DNA of 61,868 nucleotides, from the NCBI GenBank assembly GCA_041936745.1, contig JBHGWS010000135.1, positions 1 to 61,868 of the forward strand. The letters are read 5' to 3'. Below, one piece after another: positions 11,043 through 26,614 of this stretch; position 1 is the stretch's first letter; each line of letters opens with the position of its first letter. Below the pieces are notes generated by a model. That model was not told the origin of the DNA. It made no database searches and saw nothing but the letters and a program-made list of their open reading frames with translations. Position numbers and translations under genes: made by a program. The DNA comes from Candidatus Darwinibacter acetoxidans (GTDB taxonomy: Bacteria; Bacillota; Limnochordia; Darwinibacteriales; Darwinibacteriaceae).

Positions 11043-11056
11043 TGAACAAAAGTTCA
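11043..11056. promoter_or_regulatory. Palindromic operator, probably for the SorC/DeoR regulator
   Basis: TGAAC-AAAA-GTTCA perfect inverted repeat between promoter and RBS; fits the TGAA-N6-TTCA spacing of the B. subtilis DeoR operator. Confidence 0.6.
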
Positions 11057-11079
11057 AGATGAGAAATGAGGTGATAAAA

Positions 11080-12153: not shown

Positions 12154-13182
12154 ATGACAAGAAAGAAATGTCTCAGTTCAGTTTTAGCAGTCTGCGCTGT
12201 AGTATTGACTGCAGCTTTATTCGCAAGTGGCCCTGCTTTTGCCGCCGATCAGAAATTCAAAGCGGCTATGGTTACAGATGCCGCGGGCTTGGGAGATCAG
12301 AGTTTCAACGACACCGCTTGGGCGGGCCTTAAAAGATTGGAAGAAGAATTCGGTACGCAAATTTCGGTTGTGGAATCAACGGAAATGACACAGTACGTCA
12401 CAAATTTACTCCGTTTGGCAGATTTAGATTACGACATGATTGTAGCTGTCGGGTCGTTGTTGGAAGATGCCATCGAGGACGTTGCGGACCGCAGGCCAAA
12501 CACCAACTTTCTTATGATCGACAGTGTTGCCCAAGGCGACAGCGTTTTATCCGTGCTTTACCGCGAGCAGGAAGGGTCATTTTTAGCCGGGGTTGCCGCA
12601 GGCTTGATGACTAAGGGCAATCGAGTGGGCTTTATCGGCGGCATGGATGTCCCGCCGGTGGAAAGATGGCGTGTTGGCTTTGAGGCAGGCGTTAAAACGG
12701 TAAATCCCGACTGCACAGTTGTTGTGACCTTCATTGAAGACTTCAACGATCCCAATAAAGGCAAGCAGTTGGCCCTCACCCAATACAATTTCGGTATCGA
12801 TATTATCTTTGCCGTGGGCGGCCAATCGGGCTTAGGGGTTATCCATGCAGCGGAAGAAAAAGGCGAAGGTTTCTATGTCATCGGCAGCGACTCCGATCAA
12901 AACCACCTGGCACCGAAAAATGTTTTGGCTTCCGTTGTCAAAGCAGTTGATATGAGTATCTATGAAGCTTTTGCAATTTTAAGGGAAAACGGTAGGTTTT
13001 CCGGCGAAGTTCTCTCTCACGGCCTGCCGGAAGGCGGTATGGCCCTGGCTACGACAGGCGATTTACTGCCTGAAGAGGTGCTGGCAGAAGTTGAATACTG
13101 GCAGGAAAGAGTACTGAACGGCGAAGTTGTGGTGCCGAGCAATCTCAACGAGCTAAAAAGCTTTGCTGCCCCTTCTAAATAG
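12154..13182 (+). CDS. BMP-family ABC substrate-binding protein (nucleoside-type)
   Basis: GLGDQSFND, YREQEGSFLAG, VGFIGG, FNDP.KGK, IG.DSDQ motifs; SPase I-type signal ending AFA-A. Confidence 0.93.
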   Translation: MTRKKCLSSVLAVCAVVLTAALFASGPAFAADQKFKAAMVTDAAGLGDQSFNDTAWAGLKRLEEEFGTQISVVESTEMTQYVTNLLRLADLDYDMIVAVGSLLEDAIEDVADRRPNTNFLMIDSVAQGDSVLSVLYREQEGSFLAGVAAGLMTKGNRVGFIGGMDVPPVERWRVGFEAGVKTVNPDCTVVVTFIEDFNDPNKGKQLALTQYNFGIDIIFAVGGQSGLGVIHAAEEKGEGFYVIGSDSDQNHLAPKNVLASVVKAVDMSIYEAFAILRENGRFSGEVLSHGLPEGGMALATTGDLLPEEVLAEVEYWQERVLNGEVVVPSNLNELKSFAAPSK

Positions 13183-13225
13183 ACAAATCTAATTCTACTC
13201 ACCAAAGACTGGGAGGGACTATACT

Positions 13226-14734
13226 TTGAGTTTAGCGGTAGACATGCGAGGCATCACTAAGCGATTCTCTAAAGTATTAGCTAACGACAAGGTCGACCTG
13301 CAGGTAGAAACCGGGGAAATCCATGCCATTTTGGGCGAAAACGGAGCCGGGAAATCTACTCTGATGAACATTCTGTACGGTCTTTATCAGCCTGACGCAG
13401 GAGAAGTTCGTATTAACGGTGAATTGAAATCGTTTCGCAATTCCAGGGAAGCCGTCCAAGCCGGGATAGGCATGGTTCACCAGCATTTTATGCTCATACC
13501 TACATTGACGGTGGCTCAAAACATTATCTTGGGGCAGGAAATTGAAAAAAACGGGCTGTTGGCCGCAAAACTTGCCGACCAAGTGATTAAAGATTTATCC
13601 AAGCAACACGGCCTAAGGGTCGACCCCCAAGCCTATGTGCGGGATATATCCGTTGGTATTCAGCAGAGGGTGGAGATCTTAAAAATACTGTACAGGAAAG
13701 CAAAGATCATTGTTCTCGACGAACCGACGGCTGTTTTGACGCCGCAGGAAGTAGGGGAGCTGTACGAAATTCTCAACAACCTGAAAAACTCCGGCCACAC
13801 CATAATCTTCATAACCCACAAAATCAAAGAAATCAAAGATATCAGCGATAGAGTAACCGTTTTAAGAGACGGCCGATTTATAAAAACAGTCAAGACAAAA
13901 GAAGTCGACCACCAAGAGCTGGCTCGGTTGATGGTTGGCAGGCCTGTAGAATTAGTATGCCACAAGGACCCTCCCCGCATCGGGGGAGTGGTTCTTGCGG
14001 TGAACAACCTGCAGGCGGAAAATGAGCGGGGCACACCTGCACTGAAGGGAATTGATTTGGTAGTCAGGCGGGGAGAAATTGTCGGTATTGCCGGAGTTGA
14101 CGGTAACGGCCAGACTGAATTGATCGAGTGCCTGGCCGGGCTGAGGCAGCCGACTTGTGGGACAATTAAGCTCTGCGGACAGGATATTACGGGCTGTGAT
14201 CCGGAAACAGCTTACAAAACGGGCCTGGGGCACATCCCGGAAGACAGGCATAAACACGGGTTGATCTTGGATTTTTCACTCACGCAAAATCTATTAATGG
14301 GGAATTTGGGCGACAAGCAATTCTTTAAAGGACCGGTGATCGATTACCAAAAAGCCCGCAAGCGGATTACTGAATTAATTGAACGCTATTCCATCAGGGC
14401 ACCTCACGCGGAGGCCAGAGCGGGTGGGCTGTCCGGCGGCAATCAGCAAAAAGTGATTATCGCCCGGGAGATCGATAAGGACCCCGATCTCTTGATTGCG
14501 GCCCAGCCGACCAGGGGTGTGGATGTGGGGGCCATCGAATTTATCCACCGGCAGTTGATTGAACAGCGGGACAAGGGCAAGGGTATTTTGCTTGTATCCA
14601 TGGAATTGGATGAAATTATGCAGCTTTGTGACAGGATTTATGTTATGTATGACGGCTGCTTTGTTGGTGAAATGGACGCAGCAGATGCAACAACCGACAA
14701 TTTAGGCCTTCTTATGGCGGGGGTGAGGGAATGA
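13226..14734 (+). CDS. Nucleoside/sugar ABC ATP-binding protein (double ATPase domain)
   Basis: GENGAGKST, ILDEPT-like DEPT, LSGGNQQK, QPTRGVD motifs. Confidence 0.95.
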   Translation: MSLAVDMRGITKRFSKVLANDKVDLQVETGEIHAILGENGAGKSTLMNILYGLYQPDAGEVRINGELKSFRNSREAVQAGIGMVHQHFMLIPTLTVAQNIILGQEIEKNGLLAAKLADQVIKDLSKQHGLRVDPQAYVRDISVGIQQRVEILKILYRKAKIIVLDEPTAVLTPQEVGELYEILNNLKNSGHTIIFITHKIKEIKDISDRVTVLRDGRFIKTVKTKEVDHQELARLMVGRPVELVCHKDPPRIGGVVLAVNNLQAENERGTPALKGIDLVVRRGEIVGIAGVDGNGQTELIECLAGLRQPTCGTIKLCGQDITGCDPETAYKTGLGHIPEDRHKHGLILDFSLTQNLLMGNLGDKQFFKGPVIDYQKARKRITELIERYSIRAPHAEARAGGLSGGNQQKVIIAREIDKDPDLLIAAQPTRGVDVGAIEFIHRQLIEQRDKGKGILLVSMELDEIMQLCDRIYVMYDGCFVGEMDAADATTDNLGLLMAGVRE

Positions 14735-15852
14735 ACTGTTCCAAAGCAGCAGCTGAAAAAAAGAACACTTTTAGGCACTTCTTGACCCGTGAAAAAACGG
14801 AACCGCTTTTGACAATGCTGTCGTCTTTAATTATTTCATTCTGTATCATCGCAGCACTGCTCCTTTTGACAGGCTACAATCCGGTGTTTGTGTTTTCCAC
14901 GCTGTTTACCGGTGCCTTCGTGGGCGAAGTGAATATTTCGGAAACTCTTTTAAGCGCAACACCTTTAATGCTTTTGGGCTTGGCGGTAGCTTTTTCTTTC
15001 AAAGCGAGCCTTTTAAACATTGGCGTGGAAGGGCAGATGATAGTGGGTGCGCTGGCCGCGGGTGCAGTAGGCATCTACTTGAAAAATATGCCGGCGTTTT
15101 TACACGTCACATTATCTCTCTCGGCGGGAATGGCTGCCGGTGCACTGTGGGCTTTTTTGCCCGGCTACCTGAAGGCCAAAAGGGGTTCCCATGAAGTTAT
15201 CATTACGGTCATGATGAACTACATTTCGTTTCGGGTCTCCGCTTATTTATTGAATGGGCCGCTGAAGGCTCCCGGGGCGAATATTGCCGCTTCGCCGCGC
15301 ATTTTGCCGACGGCAAGGCTGCCCATTTTAATCACCGGCACCAGGTTAAGCATAGGGATTCTTTTTGCACTGCTGACCGCTGCCATCCTGTGGTATATGT
15401 TTCGCTACACAAAATACGGATACGGCGTGGAGGCTGTTGGTTTAAATGCCCATGCCGCAGAGTACTCAGGCATTAAAATTGACCGGACAATAATCACGAG
15501 CATGCTGATCAGCGGTGCTATCGCGGGTTTGGCGGGGGGAGTTGAAATCTTGGGGCTTCATTACCGGGTTTATGACCAGTTTTCACCGGGCTACGGCTTC
15601 GAATCGATAGCAGTTGCTTTAGTAGGCGGCGGCAGCCCCCTGGGAGTTGTCTTATCCGGGCTCCTCTTTGGTGCTTTAAAAGCGGGCTCCGTCAACATGC
15701 AGACCGTTGCGGGGACCAGTAAAGATTTAGTCAAAATCATTCAAGCCATCATCATTTTCTTCGCAGTTGCGGGATTTTCGTTTAAAAACCTGCTTGCGGG
15801 CCTTAGAAGGAAATTTAAAGCGCAAGAGGCTGTACTGCCCGGAGGTGAGTAA
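14731..15852 (+). CDS. Nucleoside ABC permease 1
   Basis: LLNIGVEGQ, HEVIITVMMNYI, GYGFESIAVALVG motifs. Confidence 0.92.
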   Translation: MNCSKAAAEKKNTFRHFLTREKTEPLLTMLSSLIISFCIIAALLLLTGYNPVFVFSTLFTGAFVGEVNISETLLSATPLMLLGLAVAFSFKASLLNIGVEGQMIVGALAAGAVGIYLKNMPAFLHVTLSLSAGMAAGALWAFLPGYLKAKRGSHEVIITVMMNYISFRVSAYLLNGPLKAPGANIAASPRILPTARLPILITGTRLSIGILFALLTAAILWYMFRYTKYGYGVEAVGLNAHAAEYSGIKIDRTIITSMLISGAIAGLAGGVEILGLHYRVYDQFSPGYGFESIAVALVGGGSPLGVVLSGLLFGALKAGSVNMQTVAGTSKDLVKIIQAIIIFFAVAGFSFKNLLAGLRRKFKAQEAVLPGGE

Positions 15853-16774
15853 AATAATTTACCAGATTTGCATTACATTAATCAACACGACGCTGCGCAT
15901 GGCAACTCCGCTCATCTTCGCGGCTTTAGGCGGCACTTTCTCCGAAAGATCGGGGATAATTAACTTGGCCTTGGAAGGCATCATGCTGGCAGGGGCGTTT
16001 GGCGGCGTCTTCGGTTCCTATTACACCAGTAACATACTGTTGTCAGTTATTGCGGCAATGCTCACAGGTGGCTTAATGGCCTTGATTTTAGCTTACGTCA
16101 GCATCAATCACAAGGCAAACCAAGTGGTTGTCGGTACGGCAATCAATATGCTTTCTGTGGGGCTTTTAGGCTATTTGCTCCTGGAGCTTTGGAACCAAGC
16201 GGGCCGCTCACCCATGGTGGCCAAGGTTAAGCCGTTAAATTTTCCCTTTCTTAAGTCAGTGCCCTTTTTAGGCGATGTCCTCAACGGCTTGGATATTTTC
16301 GTTTACCTGGCCCTTCTTTTGGTCCCCCTGGCGCACATTGTACTTTTTAAAACGAAGTTCGGCCTCCGGGTGCGGGCTGTTGGTGAACATCCCATGGCGG
16401 CGGAAACAGCGGGCATCAATGTGAATGCGGTACGCTACGTCTGCGTAGTGTTAAGCGGCGTTTTAGCGGGGATTGGCGGTGCTTATCTCTCCATCGGCGA
16501 GCTTGGCATGTTTACAAATCAGATGACTGCCGGCCGGGGCTTTATCGCCATGGCGGCTATGATTTTCGGGAAATGGTCCCCGGGCAAAGCTTTCGCCGCC
16601 TGCCTGATGTTTGGTGCTGCGGAAGCTTTGCAGATGGCGGGCCAAGTGTTGGGCTGGCCCATCCCCAAAGATGTCTTAATCGCCTTTCCCTATATCTTAA
16701 CAATTGTAGTATTAGCCGGCTTTGTCGGGCGGGCCGTAGCACCTGCCGCACTCGGCAAACCTTATCCTGAATAA
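15845..16774 (+). CDS. Nucleoside ABC permease 2
   Basis: ATPLIFAALGGTFSERSGIINLALEG, RVRAVGEHP, GRGFIAMAA; start uncertain (GTG 15845 overlapping the upstream stop). Confidence 0.9.
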   Translation: MSKIIYQICITLINTTLRMATPLIFAALGGTFSERSGIINLALEGIMLAGAFGGVFGSYYTSNILLSVIAAMLTGGLMALILAYVSINHKANQVVVGTAINMLSVGLLGYLLLELWNQAGRSPMVAKVKPLNFPFLKSVPFLGDVLNGLDIFVYLALLLVPLAHIVLFKTKFGLRVRAVGEHPMAAETAGINVNAVRYVCVVLSGVLAGIGGAYLSIGELGMFTNQMTAGRGFIAMAAMIFGKWSPGKAFAACLMFGAAEALQMAGQVLGWPIPKDVLIAFPYILTIVVLAGFVGRAVAPAALGKPYPE

Positions 16775-16819: not shown

Positions 16820-17842
16820 ATGGAAATGAAAACGGCGCGATTTTTAGGTAATAAAAAGGTGGCGCTTGAAAGAAAAGAAAAACCGAAGGCCGGCCCGGGC
16901 CAGGTCGTTATAGAAGTTAAAGCCTGCGGGCTCTGCGGGTCCGAGCGGCCCCAATACCTAGCGGGCTTCCACCACCACCAAGGCCATGAGGCCGCCGGTG
17001 TGGTCAGCGAGATCGGCGACGGGGTAACAAACGTTAAATTGGGGGAGAGGGTCGTCGGCTATTTAACGGGCTTTTGCGGTGAATGCGAGGCCTGCAAAGC
17101 GGGCTTAACGACAGCCTGCCAAGCCTACCCGGAAAAGGAGAATATGGGCTGGGCCTATCCCGGCGGCTTTGCGGAATATCTGCTGGTTGATGCACAAAAT
17201 GCACTGCCCTTAGATGACAGCTTATCTTTTGCTGAGGGAGTCTTACTTTTAGATACTTTAGGGACTCCTTATCACGGCCTGCGTCTCGCCGGCGCCAAAA
17301 AGGCAAAAACAGCCGCTGTCATCGGCTGCGGCACCGTAGGCTTAGGAACAGTAATCATCTTGAAATCCCTCGGCGTGGAAAAAATCTTCGCCAGCGATGT
17401 TTCCGCCTACCGGTTGGAAAAAGCTGCCGAGTTCGGCGCAGTCGCCATCGATGCGGCCAAACACGATGTTGTTGAATTTATCAGGGAAAACACTGCGAAT
17501 TCAGGCGTGGATCTTGTCGTAGAAGCAGTGGGACGGCCGGCAACTTTAGAGCAGGCAGTAAAAGCGGCCCGCTTTGGCGGTACCGTTTTAGGCCTGGGCG
17601 AACAACCTGATGAATTTAAGCTGCAGATCGATTTGGAGATGAGGTTGAAAGACTTAACTTTCGTCCGCTCTTGGTACTTTCCCGTCAAGGAATACTACGA
17701 AAACATGGAGCTGATGAAAGACGGTTTCTTTCAAGACATCAATAAGCTGGTTACACACACATTCCCCTTGGAAAAAATGCAAAAAGCGTGCGATCTTTTC
17801 TACGGGGGCGAGACCTTAAAGGCAATTATAAAATTCAGTTAA
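16820..17842 (+). CDS. Zn-dependent (MDR) sugar/polyol dehydrogenase
   Basis: CGLCGSE, GHE, structural Zn C-x2-C-x2-C-x7-C, GCGTVG Rossmann motif. Confidence 0.9.
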   Translation: MEMKTARFLGNKKVALERKEKPKAGPGQVVIEVKACGLCGSERPQYLAGFHHHQGHEAAGVVSEIGDGVTNVKLGERVVGYLTGFCGECEACKAGLTTACQAYPEKENMGWAYPGGFAEYLLVDAQNALPLDDSLSFAEGVLLLDTLGTPYHGLRLAGAKKAKTAAVIGCGTVGLGTVIILKSLGVEKIFASDVSAYRLEKAAEFGAVAIDAAKHDVVEFIRENTANSGVDLVVEAVGRPATLEQAVKAARFGGTVLGLGEQPDEFKLQIDLEMRLKDLTFVRSWYFPVKEYYENMELMKDGFFQDINKLVTHTFPLEKMQKACDLFYGGETLKAIIKFS

Positions 17843-17854
17843 GAGGTGACAGGC

Positions 17855-18820
17855 ATGAAAGCACTAATTACAGCACCTTTTTCGCAAAGCTCTTACGACC
17901 GCCTGGCTGAACACATGGAGGTGGAGTTGGCCGGCTGGGGTGTAGACGGTGAACCAATGAGCAGAGATGTACTTTTAGAAAAAATCAAGAATGTAGATAT
18001 TTTCATCAGCGAAATGGAGTTTGCCGACAAAGAAGTCATTGATGCGGGCAAAAACCTTAAAGTCATCGGCTCCGTGCGGGGAACGCCCTTTAACATCGAT
18101 GCGGAGTACGCCAAAGAAAAAGGAATCATCCCTTTATACACACCGGGCCGTAACGCGATAGGGGTTGCCGAATTGACGTTTTTTCTAATGGGCGAGCTGG
18201 CCCGCCACATTACAAAAGCCCACAACTATATGAAGGCAGGCAAGTGGAGCGCAGACGATGAGATGAGTTATATCAAATTCCGCGGTTTTGAACTTTACGG
18301 CAAACGCCTGGGCTTAGTTGGCCTGGGGGCAATCGGCCTCAAGGTAGCTAAGCTGGCACAGGCTTTTAACATGGAAGTGGCCTGCTACGATCCTTATATT
18401 GACAAAGACTGCGCCGCCGGGCACAACATTGCCCTGGTCGGCCTTAAGGAACTGTTTGCCACAGCTGATTTTGTTTCGGTGCACTGTAAGGTAACGCCGG
18501 AAACAGAAGGGATGATCGATTACGAGCTGTTGAGCTCAATGAAGGAAAGTGCCTATTTTATCAACACCGCCCGCTCCAAGATTACTAAGGAAGCTGACAT
18601 TGTCAGAGTCTTGGAAGAGGGGCGGATTGCAGGAGCAGCTCTCGATGTTTTCGATGAAGAGCCCCTTAATCCCGATCATCCCTTCCTCAAACTCGATAAT
18701 GCCTTTGTGGTACCCCATATCGGCGGGGCCACAGATGAAGTAATAGACCACCATTCAGCCATAATAACTGCTGATTTGATTAGATTTGTCAAAGGCGAAA
18801 AACCGAAGTTCATTGTTTGA
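17855..18820 (+). CDS. D-isomer-specific 2-hydroxyacid dehydrogenase family protein
   Basis: PGRNAIGVAE, GLVGLGAIG, INTAR, LDVF, PHIGG motifs; ATG 17855 after GAGGTG. Confidence 0.9.
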   Translation: MKALITAPFSQSSYDRLAEHMEVELAGWGVDGEPMSRDVLLEKIKNVDIFISEMEFADKEVIDAGKNLKVIGSVRGTPFNIDAEYAKEKGIIPLYTPGRNAIGVAELTFFLMGELARHITKAHNYMKAGKWSADDEMSYIKFRGFELYGKRLGLVGLGAIGLKVAKLAQAFNMEVACYDPYIDKDCAAGHNIALVGLKELFATADFVSVHCKVTPETEGMIDYELLSSMKESAYFINTARSKITKEADIVRVLEEGRIAGAALDVFDEEPLNPDHPFLKLDNAFVVPHIGGATDEVIDHHSAIITADLIRFVKGEKPKFIV

Positions 18821-18849
18821 ACTAAAAATAGGGCGAAAGGAGGGATTTT

Positions 18850-20388
18850 GTGCGGGATAAGTATTTGCTTGTATTTGATGCGGGAACAGGCGCGGGCCGC
18901 TGCAGCATTTTCGATCTTAAGGGATCTTTGGCAGCCGTCGATTATTGTGAATGGAATTACGTGACACCTTATGAAAACAAGGAAATCCGGGAGTTTATCC
19001 CTGCGGACTTTTGGGAAATTCTATCTCGAGTGGCCCGGGGTGCGCTGGCCAAGGCCGGCATAGATCCGAATCAGGTCATTGGCGTCACCTCGACCAGCCA
19101 GCGGGAAGGCGTAGTTATTATTGATAAGGGGGGCCAAGAGATTTATGCCGGCCCAAATATAGACTTCCGCGGCGAAGTGCAAGGGAAGTGGCTGCATGAA
19201 AACTTCGGCCCGGAAATGTATGAAATTTCCGGCCACTGGCCGTCTGCCATGACCGCTCCGGCCAGGCTTTTGTGGTTTAAAGAGCATAAACCTCATCTCT
19301 ACAAGCGAATGCATGCGCTGATGATGATCAATGATTGGATTTTGTACCGCTTGACGGGTGAAGTAGCCAGTGAACCTTCCAATGCCTGTGAGACACTGTT
19401 TTTTAACATTCACACTATGGCTTGGGACTACGATCTCATAGACAAGCTGGGCGTGAATCCCATGCTCTTTCCCAAAATACTGCGCTCCGGCGATCAACTT
19501 GGTTTGGTCAGTGAAAAAGCAGCCGCGGCAACGGGCTTAAAGGCAGGGACACCTGTGTTTATGGGCGGTGCCGATACCCAATGCGCTCTCTTGGCCACCG
19601 GTGGCCTTAAAGAAGGGCACACTGCCATCGTCTCAGGAACATCAACACCTGTCCAGGCAGTGGTAAAAGAACCCCTTTTAGATGGTAAAGCACGGGTAAG
19701 GACAGGCTGTTACCTGCCCGCAGGCAGTTGGGTCATTGACAGTAATGCCAGGCCGACGGGTGTAGTATACCGCTGGCTGCGCGATACTTTCTATGCGAAC
19801 GACTGCGCCGGCGCCGCAGATCTTTATGAAGTAATGAACAAAGAAGCGGCTGCCGTACCGCCGGGCTCTGAGGGCTTAGTGGCCTTTGGCGGGCCCAGCA
19901 TTTTGAATGTCAGTGATCAGAGGGATTTTCCCAATATGTTTTTCGGGATCAAACCAGGCTATGAAAAGGAACTCTGCCGGCGCGGGCTTTTTGCCCGCAG
20001 CATCTTGGAAAACATCGCTTTTGCCGTCAGGGGTAATATTGAACAAATCTATGATCTGCTCAATTACAAGCCCCCTTATGTCTACATGACCGGAGGCGCG
20101 GCTAAATCGGCCCTTCAGTTGGAAATTATGGCGAATGTGCTGGGCCTGCCCATCCACGTGGCTCAAGGCGAAGAGTCGACGTCACTGGGGGCCGCAATCT
20201 GTGGCGCAGTGGGTGCAGGAGTGTTCGCCGATTTTGACCGGGCCGTGGCGGCCATGGTCCGGCCCGCGGCAGTAGTTGAGCCCCGGCCTTTGTTAACAGG
20301 CGAATACGAGAAACATTATCGACGCTGGAAAAAACTTTACGATTATATGACTGAAAATATCAATGCACTAACAAACAATTTAAACTAA
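18850..20388 (+). CDS. FGGY-family carbohydrate kinase, LsrK (AI-2 kinase)-like
   Basis: DAGTG.GR.SIFDL.G, SQREG, ARLLW, GLKAGTPVFMGGAD, TGG, TSLGAAI; from memory, closely parallels LsrK. Confidence 0.88.
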   Translation: MRDKYLLVFDAGTGAGRCSIFDLKGSLAAVDYCEWNYVTPYENKEIREFIPADFWEILSRVARGALAKAGIDPNQVIGVTSTSQREGVVIIDKGGQEIYAGPNIDFRGEVQGKWLHENFGPEMYEISGHWPSAMTAPARLLWFKEHKPHLYKRMHALMMINDWILYRLTGEVASEPSNACETLFFNIHTMAWDYDLIDKLGVNPMLFPKILRSGDQLGLVSEKAAAATGLKAGTPVFMGGADTQCALLATGGLKEGHTAIVSGTSTPVQAVVKEPLLDGKARVRTGCYLPAGSWVIDSNARPTGVVYRWLRDTFYANDCAGAADLYEVMNKEAAAVPPGSEGLVAFGGPSILNVSDQRDFPNMFFGIKPGYEKELCRRGLFARSILENIAFAVRGNIEQIYDLLNYKPPYVYMTGGAAKSALQLEIMANVLGLPIHVAQGEESTSLGAAICGAVGAGVFADFDRAVAAMVRPAAVVEPRPLLTGEYEKHYRRWKKLYDYMTENINALTNNLN

Positions 20389-20406
20389 ATTAGAGGAGTG
20401 TTATTA

Positions 20407-21069
20407 ATGAAAAAAATCAACACGGAATTGGCTCAACAGGTTGTCGATTACGGTAAGAAAATGTTCCGGGCCGGCCTTGTAACCGGAACGGGCGGCAATA
20501 TCAGTGTCAGGGTACCGGGGGAAAATGCCTATTTGATTTCACCCTCCGGCATGCCCTACGAAGAAGTCACCGTAGATGACATTGTCATGATCGACTTTGA
20601 GGGAAACCAGATTGGCGGCAAAAGGCGCCCTTCCGTGGAAAAAAACATGCACAGGCTGATTTTAAAGAACAGGCCTGAATTCAATGCGGTGATCCACACC
20701 CATTCCACCTATGCTTCCGCTTATGCTTCGCTGCGCAGGCCCCTGCCCGTCTTTTTAGATGTTATGTCCTGCGTTTTCGGCGGCCCGGTGCCTGTTGCGG
20801 AGTATGCCCGCATCGGTTCTGAAGAGCTGGCTGTTAATGTGGAAAAGGCAATGCGGGGAACCAACGTTGTCTTGATCGCCAACCACGGCAGTATCGGTGC
20901 GGCTGACAGCTTAGAGTTCGCGTACGGTAACGTGGAACTTTTGGAAGTCTGCTGCAAGAGCTACTTTGCTGCCTGCGCAGCCGGTGTCCCCATTTCTGTA
21001 AGTGACGAAGATGTAAGGCTGACAGTTGAAGAGCAGGCTAAGAAATACGGCCAAAAAGGCAAAGACTGA
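20407..21069 (+). CDS. Class II aldolase (L-fuculose-1-phosphate aldolase/DrdA-like)
   Basis: GTGGNISVR, PSG, PSVE (catalytic Glu), HTH, NHG, C-terminal KKYG tail. Confidence 0.9.
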   Translation: MKKINTELAQQVVDYGKKMFRAGLVTGTGGNISVRVPGENAYLISPSGMPYEEVTVDDIVMIDFEGNQIGGKRRPSVEKNMHRLILKNRPEFNAVIHTHSTYASAYASLRRPLPVFLDVMSCVFGGPVPVAEYARIGSEELAVNVEKAMRGTNVVLIANHGSIGAADSLEFAYGNVELLEVCCKSYFAACAAGVPISVSDEDVRLTVEEQAKKYGQKGKD

Positions 21070-21112
21070 GTGCCCAATTACTTGATTCGAAGATTCTTTA
21101 AGGAGGATTCAA

Positions 21113-22099
21113 TTGGTAAAAAAATCACTGCACGAACTAGCGTTAAAAAGCAAAAAAGCATTGTTGATCGGCATTGGCGGCGGCGGGGACATCATCCAAG
21201 GTATTCCCATCCGCAACTATTTCAAAGATTTAGGTGTAGAAGAGGTCGCTTTGGCGGGGATTGCCGGCGAGTGGTGGCCCTTTGATACAACATCGCCCAG
21301 CGAATACATTTGGGCACCTACGGTCTATCGCGTGGAAGATTTGGAAAATGCCAAGCTTATCTGCCCCGGCGCGGCCGAAGTAACAAAGGATACGAAATAT
21401 GAGGGCAGGGCAATTGCAGAAGCCAAGGTAAGCGGCGTAATCGGTGAAAACACCTTCGTTTTTTCTGCCAAAGACGGGGTCCAAGGCTTGCTCAAGACAC
21501 TTAATGAGTTTGTGGCAGTAATGGGCTTCGATCTGGTTGTGGGCATGGATGTGGGAACCGATTCGCTCTACAGCGGTGATGATGAAATCCACCAGCCCAA
21601 AACACCTTTGGTGGACTTTATCGCCCTTTCGGCTTTGGCTAATCTCAATGTAACATCAGTCTACGGTTTGGCGGGCTTTGGTGCCGACGGCGAGATGGAG
21701 ATCGTCGATGCTGAGCGCAACTTGGGTAAAATCATGCAGGCGGGCGGCTTTATCGGTGCTTACGGCCTCGGCCAGCAGGACATTATCGACATGGAAGCGG
21801 CTTGTGATGAGTTCGCCGACCCTGTGGAGAGGTTTCCCTGTCTGGCGGCTAAAGGGGACTTTTCTTATAAACTGATGAAACTCTCCGATATTTGGGGGAC
21901 AACCGTCAAACTCATGCCGATTACGGCCGTGACCATGTTCTTCGATCCCAAGGTAGTCGTGGAATCCTGTGCGAAGCTGGCGATTGAAATCTTCGAAACA
22001 AACAGCTTGGAAGAAGCGGAAGACATCTTCCTGGCCAATGATGTGGTGCCTGAAACCAGGCTGCCCCGCGCCGTTGATTTCCTGCCGCCCAGACAATAG
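21113..22099 (+). CDS. DUF1152 family protein of unknown function
   Basis: GIGGGGD, DVGTD..YSGDD...P.VD, GFGADGE motifs as recalled for DUF1152; TTG start after AAGGAGG. Confidence 0.75.
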   Translation: MVKKSLHELALKSKKALLIGIGGGGDIIQGIPIRNYFKDLGVEEVALAGIAGEWWPFDTTSPSEYIWAPTVYRVEDLENAKLICPGAAEVTKDTKYEGRAIAEAKVSGVIGENTFVFSAKDGVQGLLKTLNEFVAVMGFDLVVGMDVGTDSLYSGDDEIHQPKTPLVDFIALSALANLNVTSVYGLAGFGADGEMEIVDAERNLGKIMQAGGFIGAYGLGQQDIIDMEAACDEFADPVERFPCLAAKGDFSYKLMKLSDIWGTTVKLMPITAVTMFFDPKVVVESCAKLAIEIFETNSLEEAEDIFLANDVVPETRLPRAVDFLPPRQ

Positions 22100-22110
22100 G
22101 AGGTAAGACA

Positions 22111-23445
22111 ATGCAGCCGAAAACGGTTGATCTGCTGATCAAAGATGTAATGGTTTTAAAAATGGATCCTAAAAGGACTTTTCTTGAAAAAGCTTCTCTA
22201 GCCGTTGACGGCGGCTACATTGTAGACATCGGCAGTGAGCTTGCGTATGAGCCGGAAAAGGTGATCACCCTTAAACAGGGTGTCGCCCTTCCCGGGCTCA
22301 TTAACTGCCACATGCACGGCACCTTAACCAGGGGTATCTGTGAAGATATGAAGCTGATGGACTGGCTGAACGAAATTTGTTATCCCCTGGATGCACAGTA
22401 TAACCCGGAGATTATCTCCGTTTCCGAACAGCTGAACCAGCTGGAGATGATCATGTCCGGCACCACCACGTTTGTAGATATCTATCGGTATATGGATTCA
22501 GCGGCCCGGGTTCTGCTTAAATCGGGTTTGCGGGGCTTTTTAACACCCCAAGTAGTTGACATTCCGCAGGGTGTGGGAGAGACGTTTGCGGACAACGTTG
22601 AGCTTTTCCACAATTGGCATGGGAAAGGCAACGGCAGAATCAATGTTTGGATGGGTGTTCATGCCCCCTATACTTCAGTTGAGGAGACTTACGTCAGGGC
22701 AAAAGAGTTTGCCGATGCTCACAATATAGGGATCCACACCCACGTGGCGGAAACCTTGGACGAGGTGGCTATGTTCCAAGAGAAACACGGTAAAACCCCC
22801 TTTGAATTCCTGGACTCTCTAGGGGTGCTGGGCGGCCCGTTTTTGGCAGCCCACTGCATCCATGTTACTGAAAGTGATATGGATATTATGGCCGCCAACG
22901 ATGTCACAGCCGTTTACAACCCGATCAGCAACATGAAGCTGGCTTCCGGTATTGCCCCCGTTGCCCGGATGAGGGAAAAAGGGATCCGGGTCGTGTTGGG
23001 TACAGACTCTAACTTAAGCAACAACAGCATTGATTTGGTGAAAGAGCTCCAAATTGCGGGCCCCCTGCAGAAATTAGGCAGAATGGATGCAGCCGTCTTA
23101 AAAAGTTATGAAGTATTGGAAATGGCCACAATCCGGGCGGCGGAGGCCTTGGGTATTGAAGAAAGCGTCGGGTCTTTGGAGGTCGGCAAAAAAGCGGATA
23201 TTATCCTCTTCGATTTCGACAGGCCCCATCTTTGGCCTTATCTGACCGGTGAGCGAAACAACATTGTGGAGCAGATAGTCTATTCCGCAAACGGGGCGGA
23301 TGTCCACACAACGATAGTGGATGGGAAAGTGCTGATGGAAAACAGAGAGGTCAAGACACTGTGCCGCCAAGAGATTTTTGCAAAATCACAAAAAATGCTG
23401 AAGCGCCTCTGTGTGGGGGCCGGGCTTATTAGCGGTAACGATTAG
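22111..23445 (+). CDS. Amidohydrolase, MTA/SAH/5'-deoxyadenosine deaminase (MtaD)-like
   Basis: PGLINCHMH, HAPYT, HTHVAET, AHCIH, SNMKLASG, LGTD, GSLEVGKKAD motifs. Confidence 0.85.
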   Translation: MQPKTVDLLIKDVMVLKMDPKRTFLEKASLAVDGGYIVDIGSELAYEPEKVITLKQGVALPGLINCHMHGTLTRGICEDMKLMDWLNEICYPLDAQYNPEIISVSEQLNQLEMIMSGTTTFVDIYRYMDSAARVLLKSGLRGFLTPQVVDIPQGVGETFADNVELFHNWHGKGNGRINVWMGVHAPYTSVEETYVRAKEFADAHNIGIHTHVAETLDEVAMFQEKHGKTPFEFLDSLGVLGGPFLAAHCIHVTESDMDIMAANDVTAVYNPISNMKLASGIAPVARMREKGIRVVLGTDSNLSNNSIDLVKELQIAGPLQKLGRMDAAVLKSYEVLEMATIRAAEALGIEESVGSLEVGKKADIILFDFDRPHLWPYLTGERNNIVEQIVYSANGADVHTTIVDGKVLMENREVKTLCRQEIFAKSQKMLKRLCVGAGLISGND

Positions 23446-23456
23446 GGGAGGCCGAT

Positions 23457-24095
23457 ATGGGCATTGTTATTTTAGGCAAAGAAATTACGTTGAAAAAATT
23501 AGTTGTATTCCTGGGCGGCCTGGCGCTTTTGGCACTCGGCATGACCCTGTTTATGAAAACATCCCTGGGCGCTGAGCCGTGGGCATTGTTATATGCCGGT
23601 GTGAGCGGTTTCACGGGACTTGACGTAGGTTTAACCATCCAGCTGATTGGAATTGCCATGGTTTTGTTAGTCTGCGTAAGTGAAAGAAGCCTGCCCAAAC
23701 CGGGTACTCTAGCCTCTTTTATAGTAATCGGCCTTTTTGCCAATTTTTTTGCGGGGCTTGGTTTTAACTTTTCCGAGTTAGGTTTTTTAGCTAACCTGGC
23801 GGCCTTCATCACCGCGGTCATCACAGCCTCGTTAGGCTTAGGTTTGTATGTGGCTGCTGATTTAGGCGAAGGGAATATAGAACTTCTGCAATTTTTTCTC
23901 GCGGGCAGGCTGAAGAAAAATATAACTGCGGTGCGGGTAGTAATGGACTGTTCGGCTGCACTTTTGGGCTTTCTGCTCGGCGGCCCGCTCGGTGTCGGGA
24001 CAGTTATTTCCGCTTTTGCCATTGGGCCTCTCCTGACTTTCTTTTTAAACCTCTCCCGGCGCTATCTTTTCCCGGAACACAACGAGCAAATTTAA
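23457..24095 (+). CDS. YczE/YyaS/YitT-type membrane protein
   Basis: LG.EPW..L..G, GTL, D.....LG..LGGP.GVGTV repeats; highly hydrophobic. Confidence 0.75.
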   Translation: MGIVILGKEITLKKLVVFLGGLALLALGMTLFMKTSLGAEPWALLYAGVSGFTGLDVGLTIQLIGIAMVLLVCVSERSLPKPGTLASFIVIGLFANFFAGLGFNFSELGFLANLAAFITAVITASLGLGLYVAADLGEGNIELLQFFLAGRLKKNITAVRVVMDCSAALLGFLLGGPLGVGTVISAFAIGPLLTFFLNLSRRYLFPEHNEQI

Positions 24096-24106
24096 GGAGG
24101 AAAAAT

Positions 24107-25258
24107 ATGTTTTATGAAATTTTAATTCCACAAAGGACAGTACGTAAAGCAGGCGCACTCGGCGAAATCGGCCGGTTGGTGGAGCGCCGCGGCGATAAAG
24201 CTTTTCTTGTAACCAGCAGTTTTCTGGTAGATTACGCAAAAACAGCGGCGGCAAGCCTAAAAGAAGCCGGCTTTGACACTAAAATCGGCGACTTTGTTGA
24301 TGCAGAGCCTGATATTGCTGTGGTTGACAAACTTACCGAAGATGCCAAAGAGTACGGGGCAGATATGGTTGTCTCCATCGGCGGCGGCAGTGTTTTAGAT
24401 ACGGGTAAAGCAGTTGCCCTAATGATCAACAATCCCGGTTCTGTCAGGGAGTACCTCCACGGTGTCCCCTTCGGCATGTTCGAAAACCGGGGAGTTTATT
24501 CCGCCTGTGTGGCAACAACGGCGGGAACCGGCTCGGAAGCGAGCCCCTGTTCCGTAGTAATTGATCACGAAAAACAAGTCAAGCCGAATATGCTGCACCA
24601 ATTTTTAATTCCGGATCTGGCCGTACTCGATCCTGAACTGCTCCTTTCTCTGCCGAAACCGATAGTGGCAGCCACCGGTTTTGATGCCCTAACTCACGCC
24701 ATCGAAGCGTATGTTTCCCTTTGGTCTAACGCAGCAACGAAAATGTACAGCCTGGAAGCGATTCGCTGCGTTGCGGCAAACTTGGAAAAATTCGTGAACA
24801 GCGATGATTTAGAGGCCGCAGCGGAACTTTTAAGGGGCAGCAACCTGGCAGGTACGGCGATGAATGCAGCGACAGGCATTGCTCACGGCATCGGCCAACC
24901 AATCGGTGCAGTTTACGGCATCTCCCATGGTGATGCCATGAGCATTCTTCTACCCATATCCATGGAAGCCAACTTGGACTGGGCAGTAGACGCTTACGGG
25001 CAAGTCGCTGTGGCTTTAGGTGTTGATCCCTTAGGCAAGTCGCCGAGGGAAACCGCTTTAGCCGGCACGGCCAAAGTGAGAGAAATCGCGGCGGCTATCG
25101 GTGTTAAAACTAAAATCAGTGAATGCGGCGATTTTTCTAAAGATAAGTTCGCCGAAATCGTGCAGAGCGTTAACGATACAATTGATGCAGATAACTACTG
25201 CAACCCGCGGCCGCTCACAGATGAACTTGTCCTGGAGATCTTAGAAAAAGCCTTTTAA
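24107..25258 (+). CDS. Iron-containing alcohol dehydrogenase
   Basis: GGGSVLDTGK, TTAGTGSE, DALTHAIE, AHG...SHG metal ligands. Confidence 0.92.
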   Translation: MFYEILIPQRTVRKAGALGEIGRLVERRGDKAFLVTSSFLVDYAKTAAASLKEAGFDTKIGDFVDAEPDIAVVDKLTEDAKEYGADMVVSIGGGSVLDTGKAVALMINNPGSVREYLHGVPFGMFENRGVYSACVATTAGTGSEASPCSVVIDHEKQVKPNMLHQFLIPDLAVLDPELLLSLPKPIVAATGFDALTHAIEAYVSLWSNAATKMYSLEAIRCVAANLEKFVNSDDLEAAAELLRGSNLAGTAMNAATGIAHGIGQPIGAVYGISHGDAMSILLPISMEANLDWAVDAYGQVAVALGVDPLGKSPRETALAGTAKVREIAAAIGVKTKISECGDFSKDKFAEIVQSVNDTIDADNYCNPRPLTDELVLEILEKAF

Positions 25259-25269
25259 GGGAGGGGACG

Positions 25270-25725
25270 ATGTTGAAATTAGCAGTTGGGGCTGATTACT
25301 ACGCGGGCCTGGATCTAAAAGATATTCTTGTGGCAGCCTTAAAGGCTCAAGGCTACGAAATAACGGACTGCGGCGCCAAACGAGGCGAAGCCGTTGATTA
25401 CCCTTTCGTTGCCCAAAAAGTGGCGAAAGCCGTTTTAAGCGGTGAATGCGAGAAGGGGATTTTAATCTGCGGGACCGGTATCGGTATCAGTATCGCGGCG
25501 AATAAGATTAAAGGCATTATCGCCGCCCACTGTACAGACACCTACTCCGCCAGGATGGCCGCGGAACACAATAACGCCAATATCATTACGCTGGGCGAAA
25601 GAATCACCGGTGTAGAAGTGGCCAAGGAGATTGTCACTACCTGGCTGAACAGTAAATTCCAAGCAGGCCCCCATAAAGCCTGCGTTGCCCAAATTTTACA
25701 GTTGGAAGCAGAAGGGTCCATCTAA
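25270..25725 (+). CDS. rpiB: RpiB/LacAB-family sugar isomerase (phosphate-binding residues substituted)
   Basis: DYP, ICGTGIGISIAANK, HNNAN, LGER; DH motif changed to DYY and the C-terminal Arg residues are absent. Confidence 0.85.
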   Translation: MLKLAVGADYYAGLDLKDILVAALKAQGYEITDCGAKRGEAVDYPFVAQKVAKAVLSGECEKGILICGTGIGISIAANKIKGIIAAHCTDTYSARMAAEHNNANIITLGERITGVEVAKEIVTTWLNSKFQAGPHKACVAQILQLEAEGSI

Positions 25726-25767
25726 AAAAAGAAGCCCTGCCACCAAGGTGGGAGGGTTTCTCTCTTT
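25726..25767. terminator. Bidirectional terminator ending the catabolic operon
   Basis: A-run, GAAGCCCT..CCACC-aa-GGTGG..AGGGTTTC hairpin, T-rich tail, between convergent genes. Confidence 0.65.
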
Positions 25768-26614
25768 AATCCAAAGCCGGGCCGCCGTAAGCAGCGATGC
25801 CTAGCATGCCTGCACCGCCGTGTACCGCCAAAGATGCGCTCATTTCCGCCGTGAAAATTTGGATATGCTTGAGGCGTTTTTCCACGGCTTTTTTTAATTC
25901 CTCCGCTTGGGCGGGGGCGTTGGTGTGTAAAATAGCGATGTTCAGTTCAGTGGCGGGGAAGCGCTCTTCTATCAAAGTGATCAGCCGCTGTAAGGCCCGG
26001 GGGTAGGAGCGGACCCGTGCCACAACGTCAACTAAACCATCTTTAACGCCCAAAATGGGTTTGATGGCCAAAGCACTTGCTATCAGGCTTTTCATTGAGC
26101 CGACGCGGCCGCTTTTCGTTAAATATTTTAAAGTGGGTACTGCGACAAAAATCGCCGTGCGCTGTTTTACGTTTTCAATAATTTCCATAATCTCTTCCCT
26201 GGTTTTACCAGCCTGCGCGGCCTTGGCCGCAGCCAGGGCCATAAAACCCTGGGCCATACTGGCAGTTTTGGAATCTACAACACTGATCGGTACAGACAGC
26301 TGTTTTTTAATTAAATTAGCAACATTGACTGTCCCGCTGCCCAGGCCGGTGACGTGGATAGAAATGATTTCCTTTGCCCTTTTTGCAGCCCGTTTATAGA
26401 CTGCCAAAAAATCTCCCGGCGAGGGCTGCGAAGTAGTAACGCTTTTGGCTTTCTCCAATTGGCTGTAAAAATGCTCCGCCGAAAGATCAACGCCCTCTTT
26501 ATAGACCTCATCATCTATCTGCACACTGATGGGGACCACATCTAAGCCCAACAGGCGGGCAAGCCTTTCGGGGATGCCCGCGGAACTGTCTGTAACAATA
26601 ACTATGTTTTTCAT
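25766..26614 (-). CDS. DegV family fatty-acid-binding protein
   Basis: IVTDSS, TTSQPSPG, SGT, VDSKTAS, YL.KSGR, IKPIL motifs. Confidence 0.92.
   Translation of the reverse strand: MKNIVIVTDSSAGIPERLARLLGLDVVPISVQIDDEVYKEGVDLSAEHFYSQLEKAKSVTTSQPSPGDFLAVYKRAAKRAKEIISIHVTGLGSGTVNVANLIKKQLSVPISVVDSKTASMAQGFMALAAAKAAQAGKTREEIMEIIENVKQRTAIFVAVPTLKYLTKSGRVGSMKSLIASALAIKPILGVKDGLVDVVARVRSYPRALQRLITLIEERFPATELNIAILHTNAPAQAEELKKAVEKRLKHIQIFTAEMSASLAVHGGAGMLGIAAYGGPALD

Follow-up and report, generated by a model that had tools for sequence, protein, structure and literature searches.

The question raised by this locus, which lies in a window of 61,868 nt (the whole stretch of DNA that was analysed), is what an isomerase does when it has the fold and the catalytic residues of RpiB and has lost most of the residues that clamp the phosphate of the substrate. 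The gene for this RpiB-like protein is the last gene of an operon (25270..25725, + strand). It starts with ATG and encodes a product of 151 amino acids. The protein matched PF02502 with an E value of 1.3e-51 (174.6 bits), and its identity to C. thermocellum RpiB was 52-57%. The AlphaFold2 model of the protein (pLDDT 96.6) was superposed on the 3HE8 structure with a TM of 0.95 and an rmsd of 1.2 A. The scores were 176 with NF004051 (cut-off 135) and 163 with the rpiB equivalog model TIGR01120 (cut-off 138.65). Since the equivalog cut-off is passed, the NCBI model would name the protein ribose-5-phosphate isomerase B automatically. Metabolic reconstructions would thereby credit these anaerobic-digester Bacillota with a pentose-phosphate enzyme that is perhaps absent at this locus. 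A second RpiB homologue was not found within the 61,868-nt window, and no RNA runs with the RpiB-like gene were found.

In order to clarify which residues are kept and which are replaced, the protein was aligned pairwise by HMMER with C. thermocellum RpiB (3HE8) and E. coli RpiB (1NN4). The first-pass annotation had read GCDH as changed to GADYY and GGRHQQR as changed to AGPHKAC, with CGTG and HN intact, and these alignments gave the same result. That is, GADYYAG stands in place of GSDH-GG (C. thermocellum) or GCDH-VG (E. coli), and AGPHKAC in place of GGRHATR or GGRHQQR, respectively, while ICGTG and EHN are unaltered. Tyr10 is inserted, and Tyr11 takes the place of the phosphate-contacting His (E. 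coli His10); the codons of both lie at 25297..25302 (+ strand). In the stretch Pro134-His135-Lys136-Ala137-Cys138 (codons at 25669..25683, + strand), the two Arg residues that clamp the phosphate (R132 and R136 in C. thermocellum, R133 and R137 in E. coli) have given way to Pro and Cys. The catalytic set of Asp9, Tyr44, Cys67, Thr69, His100, Asn101, Arg111 and His135 is retained.

We then counted the residues in 8 members of the subfamily to which this protein belongs and in 113 close canonical RpiB homologues. Asp9, Cys67, Thr69, His100 and Asn101 (E. coli Asp9, Cys66, Thr68, His99 and Asn100) were invariant in both sets, which bears out the earlier claim that the catalytic residues are kept. 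Cys67-Gly68-Thr69 (codons at 25468..25476, + strand), with the catalytic base and the proton shuttle, are conserved in 121 of 121 aligned sequences, and the ring-opening His100 and Asn101 (codons at 25567..25572, + strand) are likewise invariant across the alignment. At the three anchor positions the canonical RpiBs had His (112 of 113), Arg (110 of 113, with Lys in the other 3) and Arg (113 of 113), and none of the 113 had the inserted residue. In contrast, all eight known subfamily members had Tyr-Tyr, Pro (Gly in one) and Cys at these positions. By this count, such a pattern of replacement is far beyond chance. Positive charges were also lost elsewhere in the subfamily, since K/R98 was changed to Ala in 8 of 8 members, R84 to Ile in 7 of 8, and K141 to Gln in 7 of 8. 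These results indicate that the protein has an RpiB fold and is distinct from canonical RpiB by the loss of the clamp.

The replaced His and Arg residues had been taken as phosphate-binding residues, and the literature agrees. The phosphate anchors of RpiB are named as His11, Arg137 and Arg141, and also Arg113, in PMC4783025, which gives the roles of the anchor His and of the catalytic Cys and Thr as well, and the equivalent residues of LacAB are described in PMC3755991. The equivalent of Arg113 is retained here. Among the anchors His10, Arg133, Arg137 and Arg110 in E. coli numbering, the residue now present as Arg111 is the sole one retained. In addition, a basic residue (Lys or Arg) has been gained in loop 36-41 in 8 of 8 subfamily members vs 16 of 113 canonical RpiBs; the equivalent loop holds a phosphate-binding Arg in LacB (Arg39) and in E. 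coli RpiB (Arg40). Because Arg111 and His135 are kept and this loop has gained Lys or Arg, an anionic group may still be bound in a different manner. As a separate observation, C. immitis RpiB still binds phosphate with most of the basic residues absent and only one left.

A change at one of these positions has also been made in the laboratory. In C. thermocellum RpiB, the mutation R132E, at the position of Pro134, is reported to increase the activity towards unphosphorylated D-allulose. The subfamily resembles this mutant in that the positive charge is gone at the same position, but R132E is one laboratory mutation, whereas the natural subfamily is changed at at least six positions. The subfamily presents a natural change of specificity, in which the phosphate clamp would have been dismantled with the catalytic residues in place, and so a clean case for the study of enzyme evolution. 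The parallel with a mutant engineered for making rare sugars suggests that the enzyme might be a useful scaffold for biocatalysts that act on free or deoxy sugars.

We further examined whether other members of PF02502 explain the protein better. DerI/EryI (D-erythrulose-4-phosphate isomerase) and LacAB (galactose-6-phosphate isomerase) share this family with it, but the scores were far below the equivalog cut-offs: 137 against 240 for the DerI/EryI model NF051858, 116.5 against 234 for LacB, and 104 against 164 for LacA. The gene is also single and does not form a LacA/LacB pair. RpiB-fold enzymes for non-phosphorylated sugars are already known from DhuI (4-deoxy-L-threo-5-hexosulose-uronate ketol-isomerase; 4U8E/4U8F) of the RpiB/LacAB superfamily. 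DhuI, however, has about 210 amino acids, belongs to another subfamily, acts on a uronate and is only 15-18% identical to our protein (18% for 4U8F). The DhuI-type model PRK09273 gave 29 bits against a cut-off of 137. Fold and catalytic residues are shared most closely with RpiB itself (EC 5.3.1.6; 3HE8/3HEE, and E. coli RpiB/AlsI, 1NN4), and the differences lie in the replaced anchor His and both C-terminal Arg, the residue inserted after Asp9 and the three further basic residues lost.

Of 185,579 species genomes, only 2 contained members of the subfamily, and in the tree the subfamily formed one clade inside the Clostridia-type RpiBs. Within it, pN was 0.07-0.24 and pS was 0.48-1.0, and the single unsaturated pair gave a dN/dS of 0.10; these values indicate that the subfamily is under purifying selection. 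At every subfamily locus the gene was the final gene of one and the same cassette, and its position, ribosome-binding site and terminator were conserved. It was never found in a housekeeping, pentose-phosphate or allose (als) context, unlike canonical rpiB, and among about 78 canonical rpiB loci there was not one with another cassette-specific gene. The proposal of a new RpiB subfamily was thus upheld, that is, the group is distinct, conserved, monophyletic and under selection. In the window, the ribosome-binding site AAGGGAGGGGA of the gene was read from the sequence at 25257..25267 (+ strand), at the 11-nt gap past the stop codon of the preceding Fe-dependent alcohol dehydrogenase gene; it reads GGGAGGGGA downstream of that stop codon. 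A GC-rich hairpin with runs of A and T at its sides lies 3' of the gene (25735..25768), and by its sequence it is a predicted bidirectional terminator separating convergent genes.

The cassette itself gives further information on the substrate. All its genes are on the + strand. At its upstream end lie a SorC/DeoR regulator of the LsrR type, which is a sugar-binding type (11011..12063), and a BMP/PnrA-type ABC importer consisting of a binding protein, an ATPase and two permeases (12154..16774). Orthologues of the regulator (PF04198) were found upstream of the cassette at loci L004, L089, L091, L092 and L095. Then follow, in a conserved order, a Zn-dependent alcohol dehydrogenase (Zn-ADH) resembling polyol and threonine dehydrogenases (16820..17842), an adjoining D-2-hydroxyacid dehydrogenase family protein (17846..18820), an LsrK-like FGGY kinase (18850..20388), a FucA/DrdA-like class II aldolase (20398..21069), a DUF1152 protein (21113..22099), an amidohydrolase of the MTA/SAH/5'-deoxyadenosine deaminase group (22111..23445), a YczE/DUF6198 membrane protein (23457..24095), an Fe-dependent alcohol dehydrogenase (Fe-ADH; 24107..25258) and the RpiB-like protein. 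The kinase scored 353 bits with the LsrK model (cut-off 528), and in the PDB it matched LsrK with 268 bits vs 124 bits for the next protein. The PDB matches of the aldolase were S. pneumoniae FucA (165 bits), B. thuringiensis DrdA (6BTD, 135 bits) and E. coli FucA (121 bits); DrdA is a 5-deoxyribulose-1-P aldolase. The best PDB match of the amidohydrolase was the MTA/SAH deaminase 4F0R (233 bits). The closest model for the Fe-ADH was the FucO-like lactaldehyde reductase TIGR02638 (226 bits, under the cut-off).

The DUF1152 protein gave a confident AlphaFold2 model (pLDDT 94.8), and a fold search of the PDB with it returned nothing significant (best E = 0.014, TM 0.33). A weak resemblance to purine nucleoside phosphorylase and MTA/SAH nucleosidase (MTAN), with probabilities of about 0.1 and TM values of 0.15-0.2, was not used. 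Our literature search found no paper that mentions DUF1152. The nucleoside-type pathway proposed for the cassette would include this family, which is without a known function or fold relative.

A new finding of the present analysis came from six sister cassettes that have no RpiB-like gene and whose orthologues are 43-63% identical to those described above. In 6 of 6, a XylA/RhaI-like TIM-barrel protein (XI-like) was encoded between the Zn-ADH and the 2-hydroxyacid dehydrogenase, where the cassette in the window has no such gene. The XI-like proteins keep the xylose isomerase residues E181, K183, H220, D255 and D257, and they scored 75-91 bits with XylA, 40-64 with RhaI and 31-47 with OtnI. 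Xylose isomerase and L-rhamnose isomerase act on free sugars. The operon positions of the XI-like and the RpiB-like genes differ, and we regard the two as equivalent because they are mutually exclusive, which is the sole basis for it. This alternation looks like non-orthologous displacement. If so, it would fix one step of a conserved and uncharacterised nucleoside-type pathway, and the pathway would become approachable by experiment. Two of the sister cassettes lead into xanthine-dehydrogenase genes, and three contain an aldehyde:ferredoxin oxidoreductase.

The clamp residues are lost, and the slot in the cassette is filled elsewhere by an enzyme of the xylose isomerase type; therefore a phosphate-free sugar is the most likely substrate. 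The first-pass annotation had also proposed a sugar without a terminal phosphate, and both the XI-like sister isomerases and the D-allulose activity of R132E lend support to this proposal. We infer the substrate class, the order of the reactions and the identity of the sugar as follows. With about even confidence, we think that the enzyme is a neofunctionalised RpiB paralogue that would isomerise a free, non-phosphorylated aldose to the 2-ketose. From the sequences of the cassette, the most likely substrate would be a pentose derived from an adenine-type nucleoside, namely 5-deoxyribose, 5-methylthioribose or plain ribose. The enzyme would use the retained cis-enediol machinery of RpiB, with Cys67 as the base, Thr69 as the proton shuttle, His100 as the ring opener, and Asp9 and Asn101, while the cationic clamp for the terminal phosphate of ribose-5-phosphate would have been dismantled by the changes of His to Tyr-Tyr, of Arg to Pro and of Arg to Cys and by the loss of K/R98, R84 and K141. 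The ketose would then be phosphorylated at C1 by the LsrK-like kinase, the aldolase would split the product into DHAP and a short aldehyde, and the Fe-ADH would reduce the aldehyde.

Such an order of isomerase, kinase and aldolase would be that of L-fucose and L-rhamnose catabolism (FucI/RhaA, FucK/RhaB, FucA/RhaD and FucO), an analogy for the step order that is drawn in PMC6079011. The four enzyme classes of those pathways are all present and conserved in the cassette. The isomerase, however, has the RpiB fold and is not a FucI/RhaA homologue (in the sister cassettes it is a 3KTC-type XI-like protein), the kinase is LsrK-like, and the cassette adds a nucleoside-type importer, a deaminase, DUF1152 and two extra dehydrogenases. 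The isomerase-kinase-aldolase scheme leaves the strictly conserved Zn-ADH, 2-hydroxyacid dehydrogenase and DUF1152 without a role.

The cassette also resembles the DHAP shunt of 5-deoxyribose salvage in its FucA-like class II aldolase. Judged from its genes, it is likely to be fed by 5'-deoxy-adenosine-type nucleosides and to end in DHAP and an aldehyde, as that shunt does. In the known DHAP shunt (MtnK/DrdK kinase, MtnA/DrdI isomerase and Ald2/DrdA aldolase), phosphorylation comes first and the 1-phosphate is then isomerised, whereas in the cassette the first step appears to be the isomerisation of the free sugar. Homologues of MtnK, MtnA, MtnP and MtnN were not recognised in Pfam and NCBIfam scans of ten cassette proteins, which included the binding protein of the importer but not its ATPase or permeases. 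Our literature search found no link of RpiB with 5-deoxyribose, the DHAP shunt or methylthioribose.

We consider it somewhat unlikely that the substrate is non-phosphorylated and something other than a simple aldose. It might be a keto- or diketo-5-deoxypentose, formed when the Zn-ADH oxidises the sugar of a nucleoside and the base is eliminated, or a 2-oxo or 3-oxo acid sugar comparable to that of the OtnI step in tetronate catabolism, and the same enediolate chemistry would bring about a carbonyl shift or an elimination. The conserved Zn-ADH and 2-hydroxyacid dehydrogenase would then have roles, and the gene order of Zn-ADH, isomerase, 2-hydroxyacid dehydrogenase, kinase and aldolase would be matched. 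The kinase is far nearer to LsrK, a diketo-pentose kinase, than to other FGGY kinases, and the regulator is of the LsrR type. The XI-like proteins weakly match models of hydroxypyruvate and 2-oxo-tetronate isomerases, but they favour XylA and RhaI over OtnI; the aldolase gave 105 bits with the model of the OtnC decarboxylase, but it scored higher with FucA and DrdA. A carboxylate could be bound by the Lys or Arg gained in the loop, and DhuI, with its keto-uronate substrate, is a precedent for the RpiB fold. Against this, no hydratase or lyase was identified in the cassette, DUF1152 has no fold match, and the scheme consists of inferred steps throughout.

It is unlikely that the enzyme has remained an isomerase of sugar phosphates, with ribose-5-phosphate or some other phosphosugar as the substrate, and leads the ribose of nucleosides into the pentose-phosphate pathway, with the phosphate bound by Arg111, His135 and the new Lys or Arg of the loop. 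The score above the rpiB equivalog cut-off is as such an enzyme would give, the residues named are indeed present, one basic residue suffices for phosphate binding in C. immitis RpiB, and a gene described below (P0012), if real, lacks both of these Arg anchors of the C-terminus and occupies a housekeeping position. However, up to six positive charges are jointly lost throughout the clade, neither a housekeeping nor an als context was ever seen for the gene, and the sister cassettes use a free-sugar isomerase of the XylA/RhaI type. Moreover, the type of aldolase in the cassette requires a ketose-1-phosphate and not a 5-phosphate, and removal of the charge at R132 of C. thermocellum RpiB reportedly raises the activity on unphosphorylated sugar.

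We think it quite unlikely, and mention as a speculation, that the cassette processes adenine-type nucleosides (perhaps 5'-deoxyadenosine, MTA or SAH) by an anaerobic route that has not been described. In such a route the Zn-ADH would oxidise the sugar, and the base would be freed without a classical nucleosidase or phosphorylase, with DUF1152 as the candidate for this step. From the 5-deoxy keto-pentose, the enzyme derived from RpiB, or the XylA-like one in its place, would make a DPD-like diketone, which the LsrK-like kinase would trap; the 2-hydroxyacid dehydrogenase would carry out a reduction, and the FucA-like aldolase would yield DHAP and an aldehyde. If this were true, the RpiB fold would have been put to use for the isomerisation of free 5-deoxy sugars. 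Our literature search on oxidative nucleoside cleavage found nothing relevant.

The decay of the gene, which had been named as a possibility, or its persistence as a non-catalytic rpiB remnant, is scarcely credible and was rejected, because the loss of conserved functional residues, which such a gene would show, is accompanied by the retention of every catalytic residue, strong purifying selection (the dN/dS of 0.10), the same replacements in 8 diverged orthologues, a conserved position, ribosome-binding site and terminator, and a confident structural model.

One further sequence, P0012, has the N-terminus of a canonical RpiB and housekeeping surroundings together with the C-terminus of the subfamily. 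We rejected it as an evolutionary intermediate. The first 177 nt show no relationship to the paralogue, the part from nt 178 to the contig end has 96.5% identity with the gene of P0006, and the contig stops 21 nt past the P0012 gene; P0012 is probably an assembly chimera or a product of gene conversion. If it is real, P0012 is an rpiB in the housekeeping position that lacks both Arg residues.

The RpiB-like isomerase gene (25270..25725, + strand) encodes a protein of 151 aa with a full-length PF02502 (LacAB_rpiB) domain (E = 1.3e-51). A gap of 11 nt, which contains a ribosome-binding site (GGGAGGGGA), separates it from the stop codon of the upstream Fe-ADH gene. Because a GC-rich hairpin and then a convergent gene follow on its 3' side, the gene closes a long co-directional operon. 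The protein scored 163 bits against the rpiB equivalog model TIGR01120, whose curated cut-off is 138.65; therefore, annotation pipelines will label it ribose-5-phosphate isomerase B. Its AlphaFold2 model was very confident (pLDDT 96.6) and superposed on C. thermocellum RpiB (3HE8) with a TM of 0.95 at 1.2 A.

We compared the eight known members of the variant subfamily with 113 close canonical homologues, and made pairwise HMMER alignments with the RpiB proteins of C. thermocellum (3HE8) and E. coli (1NN4). The protein has GADYYAG where 3HE8 and 1NN4 have GSDH-GG and GCDH-VG, and AGPHKAC where they have GGRHATR and GGRHQQR, with ICGTG and EHN unchanged. The phosphate-site His was found in 112 of the 113 canonical sequences, the first C-terminal Arg in 110 (the other three have Lys) and the second in all; none of the 113 has an extra residue beside the His position. 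All eight variants possess Tyr-Tyr, Pro and Cys instead, except that one member has Gly for Pro. Further positive charge is gone from the variants, that is, Lys/Arg-98 is replaced by Ala in all eight, and Arg-84 by Ile and Lys-141 by Gln in seven of the eight each. The loop at 36-41 changed in the opposite direction, Lys/Arg being present there in 8/8 variants and in 16/113 canonical sequences. Neither group varies at Asp9, Tyr44, Cys67, Thr69, His100, Asn101 or His135, and Arg111 is found in seven variants and is Lys in one. Both replacements described by the first-pass annotation (GCDH to GADYY and GGRHQQR to AGPHKAC), as well as the retention of CGTG and HN, were thus seen again, and the phosphate-site His and both C-terminal Arg residues are replaced in the whole subfamily.

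In RpiB, the phosphate is touched by a His (His11 in T. cruzi, His10 in E. coli) and is anchored by His11, Arg137 and Arg141 together with Arg113 (PMC4783025), and the equivalents in LacAB, Arg130, Arg134 and His9, grip the phosphate (PMC3755991). These roles agree with the phosphate binding that had been assigned to the replaced His and Arg residues. Pro134 of our protein aligns with R132 of C. thermocellum RpiB, and the R132E mutant is more active on unphosphorylated D-allulose, according to Yeom 2011 as cited in PMC9633178. As a caveat, C. immitis RpiB still binds phosphate, although just one of the basic residues normally found is present (PMC3212906). Taken together, the alignments show an RpiB scaffold in which the enediol catalytic residues are intact and the phosphate clamp is dismantled. 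The protein shares its fold and catalytic residues with RpiB but differs in phosphate-binding residues and gene context, and by these two features it would not be ribose-5-phosphate isomerase B. DhuI (PDB 4U8F) is a precedent for an RpiB fold that acts on a non-phosphorylated sugar, but its identity is only 15-18% and its substrate is a uronate. The models for LacAB, DerI and DhuI each scored under their cut-offs, and these identities were rejected.

All loci of the subfamily (the window, L001-3, L004-5, L006-7, L008 and L009) lie within one syntenic cassette, at 16820..25725 (+) in the window, in the order Zn-ADH, D-2-hydroxyacid dehydrogenase, FGGY kinase, class II aldolase, DUF1152, amidohydrolase, YczE/DUF6198 membrane protein, Fe-ADH and RpiB-like gene. 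At about 78 canonical rpiB loci of the same scan, none of the other cassette-specific genes was found, there being just weak ABC-ATPase matches. The importer differs in type (BMP/PnrA-type ABC in the window and L001; ECF in L004, L005 and L008), and a SorC/LsrR-type regulator precedes the cassette in the window and L004/L005. The closest characterised relative of the kinase was LsrK (268 bits), followed by glycerol kinase (124 bits). The aldolase matched FucA of S. pneumoniae (165 bits) and of E. coli (121 bits), and the B. thuringiensis 5-deoxyribulose-1-phosphate aldolase DrdA (6BTD; 135 bits). The amidohydrolase scored 233 bits with the MTA/SAH deaminase 4F0R, and 338 bits, under the cut-off, with the 5'-deoxyadenosine deaminase model. 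The nearest model of the Fe-ADH was lactaldehyde reductase, also under its cut-off.

We propose that the RpiB-like enzyme would convert a free aldose to its 2-ketose, that the FGGY kinase would phosphorylate the ketose at C1, and that the FucA/DrdA-like aldolase would yield DHAP and an aldehyde. The aldehyde may then be reduced by the Fe-ADH or, in related cassettes that have no RpiB-like gene (sister cassettes), oxidised by an aldehyde:ferredoxin oxidoreductase (AFOR). The order isomerase, kinase, aldolase is that of the fucose and rhamnose pathways (PMC6079011). In contrast, the characterised DHAP shunt and 5-deoxyribose salvage have the opposite order, in which phosphorylation comes first and the 1-phosphate is isomerised by MtnA-type enzymes.

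The substrate probably lacks a terminal phosphate, and the odds of a free pentose derived from a nucleoside seem about even. Three points speak for a 5-deoxy or 5-thio pentose, namely that C5 phosphorylation is impossible on such sugars, that the deaminase is MTA/SAH/5'-deoxyadenosine-like, and that Tyr, Tyr, Pro, Cys and Ala stand where charges were lost; specifically 5-deoxy- or 5-methylthio-ribose is a tentative assignment. Plain D-ribose could also serve, and haloarchaea have a route through a ribulose-1-phosphate aldolase (NF053831 model, 147 bits).

When the DUF1152 gene was traced into more distant relatives, six sister cassettes came to light (L088, L089 from a Bacteroidota MAG, L091, L092, L094 and L095). 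Their Zn-ADH, 2-hydroxyacid dehydrogenase, kinase, aldolase, DUF1152 and amidohydrolase were 43-63% identical to the window proteins. None of the six has the RpiB-like gene, and all have a PF01261 TIM-barrel gene of about 320 aa, XylA/RhaI-like, between the Zn-ADH and 2-hydroxyacid dehydrogenase genes (L088:5792-6757, L089:2139-3104, L091:2408-3373, L092:2039-2998, L094:5798-6769 and L095:3328-4311). In the window, L001, L004 and L006, these two genes adjoin and the RpiB-like gene is at the 3' end. Among protein families, the TIM-barrel protein came closest to xylose isomerase, at 75-91 bits with xylA_Arthro, and to L-rhamnose isomerase, at 40-64 bits; in the PDB, it matched an uncharacterised 'xylose isomerase' (3KTC, 218 bits) and that of A. 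missouriensis (71 bits). It retains the equivalents of E181, K183, H220, D255 and D257 of xylose isomerase, with His at the D245 position. Xylose and L-rhamnose isomerases act on free, not phosphorylated, sugars. The pattern is strictly either-or, with six cassettes having the TIM-barrel gene and four fully visible ones the RpiB-like gene, and its simplest reading is non-orthologous displacement between two free-sugar isomerases. The claim of a non-phosphorylated substrate, made in the first-pass annotation from the residues, thereby gains independent support.

In L091 (17012-19465) and L095 (14254-20996), the cassette leads straight into xanthine-dehydrogenase-family genes; a PucR regulator precedes them in L091, and in L095 there are genes for FAD-binding and dihydroorotate-DH-like proteins and for further amidohydrolases. 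This arrangement points to a purine as the released base, broken down alongside the sugar. AFOR genes were seen in L089 (13484-15767), L091 (6586-8439) and L095 (12333-14231), together with Fe-ADH in L089 and without a recognised one in the other two. Both gene types are consistent with a purine nucleoside as the substrate and with an aldehyde as the aldolase product.

The Zn-ADH, 2-hydroxyacid dehydrogenase and DUF1152 genes are strictly conserved, yet superfluous to a simple three-step scheme. One alternative is to oxidise, eliminate or isomerise, and then reduce, the RpiB-like enzyme acting on a keto- or diketo-5-deoxypentose or an oxo-acid sugar. This order would give both dehydrogenases a use, the gained Lys/Arg of the loop could hold a carboxylate, and the LsrK-like kinase and LsrR-like regulator might be accounted for. 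The kinase (18850-20388) is far nearer the AI-2 kinase LsrK than other FGGY kinases and may phosphorylate a keto- or diketo-pentose similar to DPD; the regulator at 11011-12063 is LsrR-type, and LsrB, LsrF and LsrG were all absent alongside the two. DUF1152 (21113-22099) lies directly upstream of the amidohydrolase in every cassette, with GxGGGGD, DxGxD and DGE invariant in the alignment. Its AlphaFold2 model was very confident (pLDDT 94.8), but nothing in the PDB resembled it significantly, the best match having E = 0.014 and a TM of 0.33. DUF1152 may carry out the missing step that releases the base, or else a hydratase or lyase step.

A decaying gene was ruled out by pN of 0.07-0.24 against pS of 0.48-1.0 (synonymous sites saturated), and by dN/dS of 0.10 in the sole unsaturated pair. 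The subfamily is real, selected and very rare. A search of 5.8 billion protein clusters showed a sharp gap in identity between six clusters at 69% or more and the canonical RpiBs, which reach 61% at most. Of the 185,579 species genomes scanned, only two were carriers, both Bacillota MAGs from digesters (73-74% identity), the next match being at 57%. In the maximum-likelihood tree, all eight members formed one clade within Clostridia-type RpiBs (support 86/89). The new RpiB subfamily proposed in the first-pass annotation is upheld by this single clade, the identity gap and purifying selection. Our literature search found no paper on it or on DUF1152, and none that places an RpiB-type enzyme in the metabolism of 5-deoxyribose or methylthioribose. 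The protein by itself is moderately surprising, and is worth more as a handle on an uncharacterised nucleoside-type pathway.

Clade support was 97/95 when P0012, an rpiB sequence at L093:4219-4662 in a sua5/tsaC-rpiB housekeeping context, was added. Its first 177 nt are canonical, and the rest, nt 178 up to the end of the contig, has 96.5% DNA identity to the paralogue gene of L006/L007. P0012 is probably a chimera that arose in assembly, with the junction in the conserved CGTG region, the other option being gene conversion; if real, it weakens the case that the housekeeping role cannot do without the two Arg residues.

The host organism turns up repeatedly in anaerobic-digester, bioreactor and sludge metagenomes of many studies, and no RNA runs containing the gene were found. 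A conserved protein of about 306 aa (55-73% identity, no Pfam domain) goes with the ECF-transporter cassettes (L004:13777-14697, L008:9408-10298, L009:8627-9517, L091:15982-16905 and L095:2-277) and is missing from the BMP-ABC version of the window. At L008:6106-7650 (MAG), the RpiB-like frame has no stop and reads on into the ECF ATPase gene that follows; either the fusion is genuine, or a frameshift or an assembly error produced it. Two ABC permease ORFs of the window (14731-15852 and 15767-16774) overlap by 86 nt when called from the first TTG, and the real start of the second is probably further downstream.
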